Positions 15,001 to 21,000 of a stretch of DNA of 64,000 nucleotides are shown here, piece after piece. The stretch comes from a virus (taxonomy: Duplodnaviria > Heunggongvirae > Uroviricota > Caudoviricetes). The stretch lies in IMG/VR virus record IMGVR_UViG_2859805564_000001. One strand, written 5' to 3'. Position 1 is the stretch's first letter. Each line of letters starts with the position of its first letter. A program made the position numbers.

Positions 15001-18000
15001 CAATAAATGTTGTTGTCTACGTACGTCAAGTAGTCGCATGAGATCTGACCAGATATGTTAAGGTTGCAGCTCTCTTTGAATATAATTATCATTTTCATTA
15101 CGTTATTGTTACGTTTATCCGGTGCGCCGTAAAACGCCGTCCTTCAGGGGGTGGAGGATGTCAAGAATATAGTTATCGTATGGTGCTCAAGGAGTATTGT
15201 GTAATATGAAAATAATTATTTTTAGAGTGCTAACTTTTTTCTTTGTTATCTTTTCAGTTAATGTGGTTGCGAAGGAATTTACCTTAGACTTCTCGACTGC
15301 AAAGACGTATGTAGATTCGCTGAATGTCATTCGCTCTGCAATAGGTACTCCATTACAGACTATTTCATCAGGAGGTACGTCTTTACTGATGATTGATAGT
15401 GGCACAGGGGATAATTTGTTTGCAGTTGATGTCAGAGGGATAGATCCAGAGGAAGGGCGGTTTAATAATCTACGGCTTATTGTTGAACGAAATAATTTAT
15501 ATGTGACAGGATTTGTTAACAGGACAAATAATGTTTTTTATCGCTTTGCTGATTTTTCACATGTTACCTTTCCAGGTACAACAGCGGTTACATTGTCTGG
15601 TGACAGTAGCTATACCACGTTACAGCGTGTTGCAGGGATCAGTCGTACGGGGATGCAGATAAATCGCCATTCGTTGACTACTTCTTATCTGGATTTAATG
15701 TCGCATAGTGGAACCTCACTGACGCAGTCTGTGGCAAGAGCGATGTTACGGTTTGTTACTGTGACAGCTGAAGCTTTACGTTTTCGGCAAATACAGAGGG
15801 GATTTCGTACAACACTGGATGATCTCAGTGGGCGTTCTTATGTAATGACTGCTGAAGATGTTGATCTTACATTGAACTGGGGAAGGTTGAGTAGTGTCCT
15901 GCCTGACTATCATGGACAAGACTCTGTTCGTGTAGGAAGAATTTCTTTTGGAAGCATTAATGCAATTCTGGGAAGCGTGGCATTAATACTGAATTGTCAT
16001 CATCATGCATCGCGAGTTGCCAGAATGGCATCTGATGAGTTTCCTTCTATGTGTCCGGCAGATGGAAGAGTCCGTGGGATTACGCACAATAAAATATTGT
16101 GGGATTCATCCACTCTGGGGGCAATTCTGATGCGCAGAACTATTAGCAGTTGAGGGGGTAAAATGAAAAAAACATTATTAATAGCTGCATCGCTTTCATT
16201 TTTTTCAGCAAGTGCGCTGGCGACGCCTGATTGTGTAACTGGAAAGGTGGAGTATACAAAATATAATGATGACGATACCTTTACAGTTAAAGTGGGTGAT
16301 AAAGAATTATTTACCAACAGATGGAATCTTCAGTCTCTTCTTCTCAGTGCGCAAATTACGGGGATGACTGTAACCATTAAAACTAATGCCTGTCATAATG
16401 GAGGGGGATTCAGCGAAGTTATTTTTCGTTGACTCAGAATAGCTCAGTGAAAATAGCAGGCGGAGATTCATAAATGTTAAATACATCTCAATTCAGTCAG
16501 TTGTTGCCGGTCTGATAATAGATGTGTTAGAAAATTTCTGCATGGTGAATCCCCCTGTGCGGAGGGGCGACTGGTGAACGGTATGATCTCTTTGATGATC
16601 GTAAGCGAGAATACGCGGGTTTGGTGGCACCAGGCCGAACTCACCGGGAGGCACCCGGCACCATGCAGTATTCAGAGATTAGGCATATATCCAGGCTCCT
16701 CATCGCAGGAGCCTTTTTACATGCAAAAAAAAACCGCTCCTGGGAAGAGCGGCTGGCAAGAAGAAACAATATGAACAATTAATTAACGATGGGAATAATA
16801 CCTTAGAGTAATCACCTTGCGCAACTGTAAGGGTATATTTCATCTTTGCGGGCTGTTTTTCTGTGTGGCTTCTGTGTTTCCGGAGGGCAGCCTGTACCTT
16901 TTCTGACTCAGAACATTATCCCGGCCGGGAGGATTCATGGCATTTAAACACTACGATGTGGTCAGGGCGGCATCGCCGTCAGACCTTGCTGAACGAATAA
17001 CTCAAAAACTGAAGGAAGGGTGGCAGCCTTATGGTAGTGCGCTGATTTCGACAGCTGGTTATGGTGCAGAGTTTATCCAGCCAGTTGTGAGTGAGGGGGA
17101 GCTTCCCTCACTTGCAGAGTCAGGCAATCACCCGCATGTTTCAGCGAAGCCTGAAGCAGCGCCGGAATATTACTATGTGATTGCGCTTGCCGGTCAGTCC
17201 AATAGCATGTCATACGGTGAAGGTCTTCCGTTGCCGGAGACATATGACCGTCCGGACCCGCGTATTAAGCAGCTGGCGCGCCGCAGTACGGTGACACCGG
17301 GCGGTGCCGCCTGTAAGTATAACGACATCATTCCGGCGGACCATTGTCTGCATGATGTGCAGGACATGAGCCGCCTTAACCATCCGAAAGCGGACCTGTC
17401 AAAGGGGCAGTACGGTACCGTGGGGCAGGGGCTGCATATCGCCAAAAAACTGCTGCCGTTTATACCGGCGAATGCGGGCATTCTGCTGGTTCCGTGCTGT
17501 CGTGGTGGTTCCGCGTTCACCACCGGAGCCGATGGCACATACAGTGACGCTGGCGGTGCCTCGGAGAATTCAACCCGCTGGGGTGTGGACAAGCCGCTGT
17601 ACAAGGACCTTATCGGTCGAACAAAAGCAGCACTGAAGAAGAACCCGAAAAATGTGCTGTTTGCCGTGGTGTGGATGCAGGGGGAATTTGATTTTGGCGG
17701 TACGCCGGTAAATCACGCAGCACAGTTTGGTGCGCTGGTTGATAAATTCCGTGCAGACCTGACGGATATGGCAGGTCAGTGCGTTGGTGGCTCTGCTGGC
17801 GGTGTTCCCTGGATATGCGGGGACACGACGTATTTCTGGAAGCAGAAGAACGAATCCACGTACCAGACGGTGTACGGCAGCTATAAAAACAAAACGGAAA
17901 AGAATATCCATTTCGTACCGTTCATGACGGATGAGAACGGGGTGAATGTGCCGACGAACAAACCGGAAGAAGACCCGGACATTCCGGGTATCGGGTATTA

Positions 18001-21000
18001 CGGTTCGAAATGGCGTGACAGCTCAGCCACCTGGACGTCACAGGACAGGGCGAGCCATTTCAGCACCTGGGCACGCCGGGGGATTATTTCCGACCGTCTG
18101 GCAACGGCGATTCTGCGCCATGCGGGAAGAGTGGCGCTAAACGCGGGGGCATCATCGACAGTATCAGAGGTGCGTCCGTCATCGCCTTCCGGTGCAGAAG
18201 TCACAGGCGTCACAACACTGCTCTCTTACCTTGCCAGCGAGTCAGAGGGAAGCCTGAAAGTACAGGGATGGTCAGCCAGTGGCGGCAGGGCAGAAGTGGT
18301 CAGCGATGCGGAGGGAACCGGAGGTAAGGCTGTGAAGGTGACCAAGGAAGCCGGTAAAAGCAGCTGGGTGCTGGAGTACGCTGCAGGCAACGGTGCGGCT
18401 CTGTTACAGAAAGGGGGGCAGATTCGCTGCCGCTTTAAGGCTTCGGGAGCGCTGGCTGCGAACCAGTATGTTATGGCGTTTTACTGGCCGGTATCGTCAC
18501 TGCCACAGGGCGTTGTCCTGACCGGCGATGGGGGGAATAACCTGCTGGCAGCGTTCTACATCCAGACGGATGCAAAAGACCTGAATGTGATGTACCACAA
18601 TGCGAAAGTGGCGACAAACAACCTGAAACTGGGAAGCTTTGGCGCATTTGATAACGAATGGCATACGCTGGCTTTCCGCTTTGCCGGGAATAACAGCCTT
18701 CAGGTGACGCCGGTTATTGATGGTCAGGATGGCACACCGTTCACGCTGACGCAGTCACCGGTCAGTGCATTTTCGGCGGATAAGTTGCATGTGACAGACA
18801 TTACCAAAAGTGCGACTTACCCGGTACTGATAGACAGCATTGCGGTGGAAGTGAATAACGCGGACGCCGCTGCATGATAAAAAAAGCCGCCAGTTACCGG
18901 AATGGACTGGCGGTGGTAATACCTATGGAGAAAAAATAAAGGAACGATACTTTCGTACTCTGTTTTTTTAAATGAAAACAGTTCTTATTGTCAACAATAA
19001 CGGAAAGAAATTATGACATTTCTGAACCAGTTAATGCTGTACTTCTGTACGGTGGTCTGTGTGCTGTATCTCCTTTCGGGTGGATACCGGGCCATGCGTG
19101 ACTTTTGGCGCAGACAGATTGACAAAAGGGCCGCTGAGAAAATCAGCGCCAGTCAGTCAGCCGGAAGCAAACCCGAAGAGCCGCTCGTTTAGCGGCAACT
19201 TTCTTAATCACACCTTTCGACGAGAAAATCCCATGTCAGAAATTACATCCCTGGTCACTGCTGAAGCAGTGAAGGACGTCCTGCGCTCTGAAGAAGTCCT
19301 GAGTGCACTGAAACAGAAACTTCGCCATAACCTGGAAGCGCGTCTTGATGCAGAAGTGGATGCCATTCTGGATGAACTGCTGGGCGCACCGGCAGCTGCG
19401 GAGCCGGAAGGCATCGCGGGAGAGGGGAGTGCTTCAGATAGCGGTGACCCCACACCTGACAGCGACATGATGATGTAAGCATGCGTCAGGGACCATCGGT
19501 GTGTGCCGGTGGTCTTTTTTATTGTTGTGAGCTTCCGGATTGCGGGAGGCGGGGTATGTACCAGATGGAAAAAATCACAACAGGTGTGTCATACACCACG
19601 TCAGCGGTGGGAACGGGCTACTGGTTCCTGCAGTTGCTGGACAGGGTTTCCCCGTCTCAGTGGGCGGCAATAGGCGTGCTGGGGAGTCTGCTGTTTGGTC
19701 TGCTGACGTACCTGACGAACCTGTATTTCAAAATCAGAGAGGACCGGCGTAAGGCGGCGCGGGGAGAGTAAGCTGATGAGCCGGAAATTCCGCTATGGTT
19801 TATCAGCTGTCGTTCTGGCGCTGATTGCCGCAGGGGCTTCTGCGCCTGAAATCCTGGATCAGTTTCTGGATGAAAAAGAAGGTAACCACACCACGGCATA
19901 CCGTGATAGTGCGGGTATCTGGACCATCTGCCGTGGAGCCACCCGGGTGGATGGTAAGCCTGTTATTCCTGGCATGAAGCTGTCGAAGGAAAAATGCGAC
20001 CGGGTTAACGCCATTGAGCGTGATAAGGCGCTGGCATGGGTGGAGAAAAACATCAAAGTGCCACTGACTGAACCCCAGAAAGCGGGGATCGCGTCATTCT
20101 GCCCGTATAACATTGGCCCCGGTAAGTGTTTCCCGTCGACGTTTTATAAACGAATTAATGCAGGCGATCGCCGGGGTGCATGCGAGGCGATTCGCTGGTG
20201 GATTAAAGACGGTGGCAGAGACTGCCGTATCCGCTCAAATAACTGTTATGGTCAGGTATCCCGTCGCGACCAGGAGAGTGCGCTGGCGTGCTGGGGAATC
20301 GACAGATAAGCAGAATATTTTGCTGAAAAATGACGTTGGCCAACGCGGGCGGATAACACGAAATCCTGCGAACTGGCAAAACCTAAGTGAATAAAGTCAG
20401 GAACATTGTTTCACGCTGAGGCACCGTAATGGTGTCTTTGTCATTTCTGCGCTTCGCACAAGCGTAAATAAACCAAAGAACCTTTCAGGATGAGCCCTGG
20501 TGGATAACCGGCAGTGGTCTGGTTAACCCTCTTTGGGCTGGTTATTCCTGTGCGTAGGGTTCATCACTAAAAGGAAATAACCGATGAATATGATGACCGT
20601 GCCGTTTCACGGCGATTCTCTTTATGTGGTTAACCATAATGGCGAACCGTATGTTCCAATGAAACCCATTGTTGAGGGGATGGGGCTGGCTTGGGCTCCA
20701 CAATTTACTAAGTTAAAACAACGATTTGCCAAAGGCGTTACGGAAATCATAATACCTTCTGCTGGTGGTGAGCAAACAATGACTTGTCTTGCTCTGCGTA
20801 AGCTGGCTGCCTGGCTTCAGACCATCAACTCAAACAAAGTTAAACCTGAAATCCGCGACAAGGTAATCCAGTATCAGGAAGAGTGCGACGATGTTCTCTA
20901 TGAATACTGGACGAAGGGGGTTGTCGTTAATCCCCGTCGAATGAGTGTGATGGAAGAACTCAATCAGGCTTGCGCTGACATGAAACGGGATAAAAACATT

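Follow-up and report, generated by a model that had tools for sequence, protein, structure and literature searches.

We found that the gene nanS-p of a prophage in IMG/VR virus record IMGVR_UViG_2859805564_000001 (Caudoviricetes) likely encodes a three-module late protein that joins a capsid anchor to an esterase and a lectin-like domain, is released by lysis, and is partly mounted on the virion. The gene lies at positions 16937-18877 (+ strand) of the 64,000-nucleotide (nt) stretch that we analyzed, here called the window, and the element that carries it is an Ss-VASD-type, 933W/phi24B-like Stx1 podovirus prophage. This reading draws on features that we observed: the open reading frame (ORF), its domain architecture, the catalytic and anchor residues, a capsid partner identical to that of phage phi24B, and a co-variation of the anchor with the type of phage head. 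It also draws on esterase activity, growth benefit and virion location in close relatives, properties that the window allele probably shares, along with a possible role in mucus. By its similarities to known proteins, the product is a NanS-p sialate O-acetylesterase. The gene has been described downstream of stx since the sequencing of 933W, and NanS-p has been characterized biochemically since 2014, so the gene call itself adds nothing new. The only mildly new elements are the co-variation of anchor and head and an Stx1-phage allele that lacks the motif SISSP.

Modules and active site of NanS-p

A reading made earlier from the sequence only had placed a 646-amino-acid (aa) ORF between stx1B and the lysis genes, and its coordinates agree exactly with those in our ORF list (ATG start, TGA stop). 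The features of the gene and its product are as follows.

16937..18877, + strand: nanS-p coding sequence (ORF list); DNA matches gp42 of Shigella sonnei phage Ss-VASD at 100% identity, protein 95% identical to 933W L0105/z1466 and phi24B vb_24B_21/gp84
16927..16932, + strand: Shine-Dalgarno GGGAGG, strong, 4 nt 5' of the nanS-p ATG, read from the sequence
16937..17098, + strand: DUF1737 module, putative capsid anchor, aa 1-54 (PF08410, E 3.6e-18; 53/54 identical to phi24B gp84)
within 16937..17098, + strand: anchor loop, head-type-specific variant A, aa 34-54, bearing Tyr42
17099..17167, + strand: linker 1, aa 55-77 (ELPSLAESGNHPHVSAKPEAAPE), without SISSP; 11/23 identical to phi24B and 933W
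17168..18136, + strand: NanS-type sialate O-acetylesterase core (SASA, SGNH type II fold), aa 78-400 (Pfam SASA; 3pt5 match)
17198-17200 and 18056-18058, + strand: codons of Ser88 and His374
18137..18205, + strand: linker 2, aa 401-423, with a conserved RPSSPSG motif; 22/23 identical to phi24B
18206..18874, + strand: lectin-like jelly-roll domain (DUF6645), putative carbohydrate-binding module, aa 424-646 (6yp6; Pfam DUF6645, E 6.3e-74)

The three Pfam modules that mark a NanS-p protein are all present, each above its gathering score: DUF1737 (PF08410) at aa 3-53, SASA (PF03629) at aa 83-276 and DUF6645 (PF20350) at aa 490-608. Sequence searches of the PDB matched aa 62-394 to 3pt5, the chromosomal NanS (YjhS) of Escherichia coli (E 1.9e-117; 55.5% identity over aa 71-394), and aa 424-641 to 6yp6, the C-terminal domain of phi24B NanS-p (E 6.8e-137). 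No solved structure in this search covered aa 1-61. NCBIfam gave no match to the product, and the PHROGs families that matched were all of 'unknown function'. Identity to 933W L0105 (z1466) and phi24B vb_24B_21 was 95% overall and 98% in the esterase core. These results, well outside what chance would give, bear out the identification as NanS-p that had been proposed from the sequence. The 933W protein and the other alleles of strains EDL933 and O104:H4 have in common with the window the gene order Q-stx-nanS-p-S, the three modules and the catalytic motifs.

The catalytic residues are in place. Ser88, His374, Gln87 and Gly190 are present, and none of G86-Q87-S88-N89, G190, Q248-G249-E250 and H374 varies among 10 homologues, the most distant of which is 46% identical. 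Gln87, Ser88 and His374 align to Gln18, Ser19 and His301 of NanS, and the oxyanion residues are Gln87 and Gly190. The active site of NanS consists of Ser19 and His301 with an oxyanion hole made of Gln18 and a glycine, and it has no catalytic Asp (PMC9063846). The protein had been called SGNH-type, which is right for the fold but not for the canonical triad. Its motifs deviate from the SGNH blocks, with GQSN in block I, QGE-x-D in block III and D-R-A-S-H (RASH) in block V, and the hallmarks of canonical SGNH/GDSL enzymes (a Ser-His-Asp triad with DxxH, GDS(L) and GxND) are missing from the product. The Asp of block V, at position -4, lacks conservation, with N or S in its place in other homologues. 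There is a Ser-His pair and no Asp. NanS shows the same deviations (PMC9063846). Judged by these motifs, the nanS-p product is SGNH-type by fold only. Chromosomal NanS is alike in its SGNH type II fold, GQSN nucleophile, R-x-S-H histidine and lack of a catalytic Asp. It differs in being a single-domain protein of the nanCMS operon, without DUF1737 anchor or lectin-like domain, neither phage-borne nor the product of a late gene.

The C-terminal domain differs from that of phi24B at few positions. It retains the aromatic residues Y511, Y516, Y541 and F612 (phi24B Y510, Y515, Y540 and F611), and these four have been proposed to bind sugar in phi24B (PMC10462455).

Activity has been measured in relatives. 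The 933W protein z1466, seven alleles of EDL933 and five of O104:H4 are all active esterases on 5-N-acetyl-9-O-acetylneuraminic acid (Neu5,9Ac2), and the assayed alleles de-O-acetylate mucin O-glycans and permit growth on Neu5,9Ac2 (PMC8065619 and PMC8319020). The esterase had been said from the sequence to release sialic acids. Instead, according to PMC8065619, NanS-p removes the O-acetyl groups from Neu5,9Ac2, free or mucin-bound, which makes the sugar usable. Hydrolysis of Neu5,9Ac2 and of mucin glycans is expected of the window allele, by analogy with alleles that are 95-98% identical.

The putative DUF1737 anchor and the phage head

The case for a place on the capsid starts from phi24B, whose NanS-p is called gp84. 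In a 2026 preprint (bioRxiv 10.64898/2026.04.10.717836), gp84 was among the strongest bands of purified virions, running at ~70 kDa when the preparations were fresh and at ~35 kDa once they had been stored. Cryo-electron microscopy at 2.5-2.7 A allowed residues 2-57 (DUF1737) to be modelled as hexamers that plug the facet-centre hexons of a T=9 capsid. Tyr42 forms the 'tooth' of this anchor, and two copies per asymmetric unit give at most 120 per virion. The authors proposed SISSP, beside Gly54, as a self-cleavage site. Linker 2 is described there, citing Franke 2020, as the reported cleavage site that releases the C-terminal domain (same preprint).

What phi24B uses for this display is present in the window. 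The anchor (aa 1-54) is identical to that of gp84 at all but one of 54 positions and keeps Tyr42 and Gly54; the difference is E19K, in the anchor helix. The putative docking partner is also there:

28932..30146, + strand: major capsid protein (MCP), putative docking partner of DUF1737 (PF13252, E 1.5e-88; 404/404 identical to the phi24B MCP)

For TerS, TerL, the portal and the head proteins nearby, identity to phi24B is 97.5-100%. Thus an anchor loop with Tyr42 and its cognate MCP, which forms a T=9 shell in phi24B, occur in the same phage. By analogy with phi24B, the window esterase is probably displayed on the capsid and is not solely nutritional cargo. The virion location itself was seen in phi24B. 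The label of metabolic cargo given earlier is partly right: a nutritional benefit to lysogens is experimental in relatives. It is incomplete in view of the late operon, the virion protein of phi24B, the identical MCP and the co-variation of anchor and head described below.

The window allele departs from gp84 in linker 1. ELPSL (G54-E-L-P-S-L) replaces SISSP beside Gly54, so the motif of the phi24B-type decoration protein is absent; the SSP motif in linker 2 is kept. The allele is likewise distinct from that of 933W, with which the window has 100% identity in the anchor loop (aa 34-54) but ~50% in linker 1, again without SISSP. The window linker 1 recurs in 14 phage records that stand for roughly nine different phages, each of them an Stx1-type member of Sepvirinae, including Ss-VASD, POCJ13, GER2, SH2026Stx1, AU5/AU6Stx1 and phiSTEC801; 199 records had a phi24B-like linker.

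If DUF1737 is a docking module, the anchor should track the type of head. We compared the anchor loop (aa 34-54) with head type in 17 sampled phage loci:

Variant A (SALISTAGYGAEFIQPVVSEG) or A-like; Sepvirinae head module; 9 loci (window, Ss-VASD, phi24B, 933W, PhiR5_2 and four deletion remnants)
Variant B (PVAITPYTLMQAIAAEG), three residues shorter than A; lambda gpE/gpD head; 3 loci (434, PhiR5_1 and Stx1_131719)
Variant B; HK97-type protease-MCP fusion head; 5 loci (Stx1a/Stx2c/Stx2a phages)

Anchor variant and head type were concordant in 17/17 loci, with no exceptions. This includes the divergent phage PhiR5_2, which has an A-like anchor on a Sepvirinae head whose MCP is 94.8% identical. 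The esterase was not tied to the head: window-type esterase and C-terminus (95-98% identical) occurred with all three head types, as did a divergent esterase type (~55-70% identical), and both esterase types occurred with both anchor types. Anchor type was unlinked to toxin type. Across the phage collection, 223 records have variant A and 109 have variant B, and the two sets of phage classes barely overlap. Apparent exceptions came from Stx2a phages, with anchor A in 113 records and a Sepvirinae MCP in 83, but the four sampled (4/4) were remnants left by deletions in that same head module and had no other head type. The co-variation lends moderate support, not proof, to DUF1737 as a docking module.

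A broader idea, which we raise tentatively and hold to be doubtful, is that the 20-residue DUF1737 loop is a head-type-specific docking cassette for enzyme display on the capsids of lambdoid phages, with A for T=9 podovirus heads of Sepvirinae and B for lambda- and HK97-type siphovirus heads, and that the SISSP-less Stx1 linker may tether the esterase permanently (at most 120 per virion). To our knowledge, no such decoration is known on lambda-type or HK97-type siphovirus heads.

Other arrangements of the anchor were seen in single phages. In PhiR5_2 (locus L015, 48-2022), the reading frame shifts at a run of G7 within linker 1, which splits the DUF1737 module (73-aa ORF) from the esterase (568-aa ORF), and anchor and enzyme would be made as separate proteins unless ribosome or polymerase slips at the run. 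Phage vB_EcoS-640R1 (L018, 6986-7189) has a stand-alone 67-aa DUF1737 gene in the slot between Q and holin that lacks an esterase part. It may encode a decoration protein in free form or be what a deletion left of nanS-p; the case is uninformative. The record of CMS-2020a, a 109-kb circular sequence, has a third, more distant NanS-p (L010, 20001-21905; 46% identical) in which the anchor loop differs again and a Lys aligns to Tyr42.

Expression, release and alternative explanations

The nanS-p slot lies between Q/stx and the holin gene S, in the late region of a lambdoid prophage, as is typical of NanS-p. The neighbouring features are:

14265-14699, + strand: Q antiterminator (Pfam Phage_antitermQ, E 1.5e-51)
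14687-14714, + strand: pR' late promoter (annotated in Ss-VASD; promoter scan)
14745-14771, + strand: tR' hairpin and U7 (terminator scan, fold)
15206-16153, + strand: stx1A, 5' of nanS-p
16163-16432, + strand: stx1B, 5' of nanS-p
16693..16719, + strand: intrinsic terminator after the stx1 operon, hairpin and U5 (dG -13.5, z -4.1; kept in 7/9 phages aligned)
16723..16754, - strand: opposed terminator, hairpin and U9, back-to-back with 16693-16719 (dG -13.6; stem kept via different sequences in other phages)
18879..18914, - strand: hairpin (18886-18914) and U7 right after the nanS-p stop (dG -15.7)
19013-19192: DUF1378, 3' of nanS-p
19233-19478: DUF826, 3' of nanS-p
19556-19771, + strand: holin, P21-type (Pfam Phage_holin_2_1)
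19776-20309, + strand: lysozyme (endolysin; Pfam Phage_lysozyme)

Ant and Rz follow the lysozyme, and then the terminase, portal and head genes. In the window, nanS-p follows stx1 rather than stx2 as in 933W, and it has no tRNA genes upstream. Three tRNA genes lie between Q and stx2 in 933W and phi24B; we found none in the whole window.

The sequence-only reading had put the gene between bidirectional terminators. This is correct upstream, where the two terminators stand back-to-back (16693-16719, + strand, and 16754-16723, - strand). Downstream, the hairpin at 18886-18914 follows an A7 and, on the + strand, lacks a trailing U-tract, and is thus a canonical terminator for the - strand only. 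In the curated record of phage 434, a - strand terminator is annotated at the equivalent place after the esterase gene. Terminators facing the - strand therefore bracket nanS-p on both sides (16723-16754 and 18879-18914), with no - strand gene close by; one possible role is to keep antisense transcription out of the late operon.

Upstream sequences from 9 phages were aligned. The G-G-A-G of the Shine-Dalgarno sequence was invariant and a series of terminator-like hairpins between stx1B and nanS-p was conserved, but there was no conserved nanS-p promoter in this alignment. A lone promoter-like site at 16772-16799 (9/12 matches) lies in a non-conserved stretch, and the scan that found it performed at chance overall (11 sites found versus 8.9 expected). 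We dropped it as evidence that nanS-p has a promoter of its own. Published data report basal expression of nanS-p relatives and co-induction of nanS-p with stx by mitomycin C or norfloxacin.

Because there is no conserved promoter and there are terminators upstream, it is simplest to suppose that no polymerase but the Q-modified form gets as far as nanS-p and that transcription originates at pR'. Q-modified RNA polymerase would run through the terminators after stx1B into nanS-p, so that the protein would be made with the toxin, lysis and head proteins upon induction. The N-terminus has the DUF1737 fold and is not signal-peptide-like, and phage lysis would therefore be the exit route of the esterase; holin and lysozyme would release both esterase and virions.

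Lysis would then free esterase that is in part mounted on virions and in part free. On virions, hexamers of aa 1-54 would plug the hexon that centres each face of the T=9 capsid, with at most 120 copies per virion. In aa 78-400, the Ser88/His374 pair and the oxyanion hole of Gln87 and Gly190 would cut 7/8/9-O-acetyl groups off sialic acids such as Neu5,9Ac2, and the jelly-roll of aa 424-646 probably holds the enzyme on glycans. Outside the cell, de-O-acetylation of mucin sialic acids would feed surviving sibling lysogens, and the capsid esterase probably also governs how phage particles stick to or move through mucus. We regard the benefit to sibling lysogens as real and a benefit to the phage particle in mucus as plausible.

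Functional analogies can be drawn to other viruses. The HEF protein of influenza C and the HE protein of coronaviruses are virion-displayed sialate O-acetylesterases that act on sialoglycans of host mucus (PMC9063846); no sequence relationship to NanS-p is expected. They differ in being SGNH type I enzymes with a Ser-His-Asp triad, in sitting on an envelope and in destroying the virus's own receptor. In contrast to the hosts of those viruses, the host of an Stx phage is a bacterium and not the producer of the mucus. Hoc of phage T4 is a mucus-binding capsid decorator (compared with gp84 in bioRxiv 10.64898/2026.04.10.717836), but it is a non-enzymatic Ig-like monomer, and here too the analogy is functional only.

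Several points weigh against a virion-mounted esterase in the window. The virion evidence is a single preprint, not yet peer-reviewed, on another phage, and the location of the window allele is carried over from that relative. The phi24B maps show only the 57-residue anchor and no enzyme, and the authors infer cleavage (bioRxiv 10.64898/2026.04.10.717836); the enzyme may not be retained on the phi24B particle. The absence of SISSP from the window allele means either that the proposed cleavage motif is wrong or irrelevant, or that this allele behaves differently, for example by staying tethered. The co-variation rests on 17 related loci, and lineage history, with recombination restricted to the conserved esterase, might account for it without selection. 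Two unrelated head types have variant B in common, a point against a tight lock-and-key fit. Finally, a host growth benefit in uninduced lysogens is documented, and a purely bacterial benefit suffices for retention of the gene.

This last point leads to the strongest alternative, that nanS-p is pure lysogenic-conversion cargo: the esterase would serve only host use of O-acetylated sialic acids of mucus, the DUF1737 and C-terminal modules would tune the enzyme, and virion association would be incidental or peculiar to phi24B. Every assayed NanS-p allele is active and supports growth on Neu5,9Ac2 (PMC8065619). We found nanS-p in 312 phage records. Of 5426 complete E. coli genomes, 1100 carry it, and the number of copies per genome (median 3, maximum 8) resembles dosage selection on the host. 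The gene is retained in prophages whose head genes are deleted (loci L011-L014), its GC content is 55.6% compared to 49.5% for the window, and it occupies the classic 'moron' slot between Q and S beside stx. However, the lack of a conserved promoter and the upstream terminators would make expression depend on lytic induction. In addition, virions of phi24B contain the orthologue as a major protein whose N-terminal domain was resolved on the capsid (bioRxiv 10.64898/2026.04.10.717836), the capsid partner in the window is identical to that of phi24B, and the anchor tracks head type while the enzyme swaps freely, for which a host-only enzyme gives no reason. We therefore think it unlikely that cargo is the whole explanation.

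It is also conceivable, but quite improbable, that the enzyme acts for the phage on bacterial glycans, de-O-acetylating the O-antigen or capsule (for example, O-acetylated polysialic acid) of target cells or debris and so aiding adsorption or preventing the trapping of progeny, like esterase tailspikes. A review raises this, citing the esterase tailspikes of phage G7C and Vi phages (PMC8065619), and the carbohydrate-binding module and the virion association of the phi24B protein would fit. However, the phi24B protein is on the head and not on the tail (bioRxiv 10.64898/2026.04.10.717836), and the window core has the active-site residues of NanS, a sialate-specific enzyme to which it is 55.5% identical. 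Activity has been demonstrated on sialic acids and mucin glycans (PMC8065619 and PMC8319020), and the literature that we examined reports no activity on a bacterial polysaccharide.

That nanS-p is a decayed, redundant prophage copy hitch-hiking with stx1 is hardly credible: the family is highly redundant and disrupted alleles exist elsewhere (an insertion-sequence (IS) insertion in PA4/PA32, the frameshift in PhiR5_2), but here the 646-aa frame is intact behind a strong Shine-Dalgarno sequence, the catalytic, oxyanion and sugar-binding aromatic residues are all kept, the esterase core is 98% identical to alleles with demonstrated activity, and a 100% identical copy occurs in the inducible, plaque-forming phage Ss-VASD.

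The surrounding prophage and the meaning of a possible capsid display

Base composition changes sharply around the gene. Within 3.7 kb (15206-18877), stx1AB has a GC content of 40.8% and nanS-p of 55.6%; the window as a whole has 49.5% and the head module 51.5%. We considered whether base composition marks a phage-native anchor fused to an acquired enzyme (51.5% GC over 171 nt compared to ~56% for the rest), but this stretch is too short for significance and we set the idea aside.

The first 36.7 kb of the window are base-for-base identical to Ss-VASD. The sole difference in the 38.9 kb compared is a run of G at 36707-36712, within the ORF at 35300-36730: the window has G6 where Ss-VASD has G7. 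The shorter run puts a frameshift into the tail-region protein homologous to Ss-VASD gp63 and phi24B vb_24B_39, which is cut from 563 aa to an ORF of 476 aa. Phase variation, a true mutation and a sequencing error in the homopolymer are all conceivable causes.

Past the end of the Ss-VASD sequence (52634-64000), the window does not continue into wrbA, the published integration site of Ss-VASD. What follows is a serine recombinase interrupted by an IS3 family member (52634-55613), then an element of the IS21 family with istB/istA (55737-58176); a further prophage contributes a tape-measure gene, which lies on the - strand (59126-61306). Coverage of this part reaches 80% in none of the complete E. 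coli genomes. Elsewhere, a 2806-aa ORF (43594-52014) has LPD38, LPD5, LPD1 and MuF-C domains and is the counterpart of a giant phi24B protein proposed in the preprint to be a head-packaged ejection protein. In the early region, beside the repressor gene, a pair of restriction endonuclease and DNA methyltransferase genes (6151-8570, - strand; per the Ss-VASD annotation) makes up a phage-borne restriction-modification system.

The co-variation of anchor and head is a cheap, testable handle on the idea of capsid display, and the linker allele of the Stx1 podoviruses is a natural variant for probing the proposed self-cleavage. If display on the capsid is true, it bears on why nanS-p has kept its place beside stx in the late operon. 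With the enzyme on their capsids, the particles of Stx phages would themselves be mucus-modifying agents, which bears on the spread of toxin genes in the gut.

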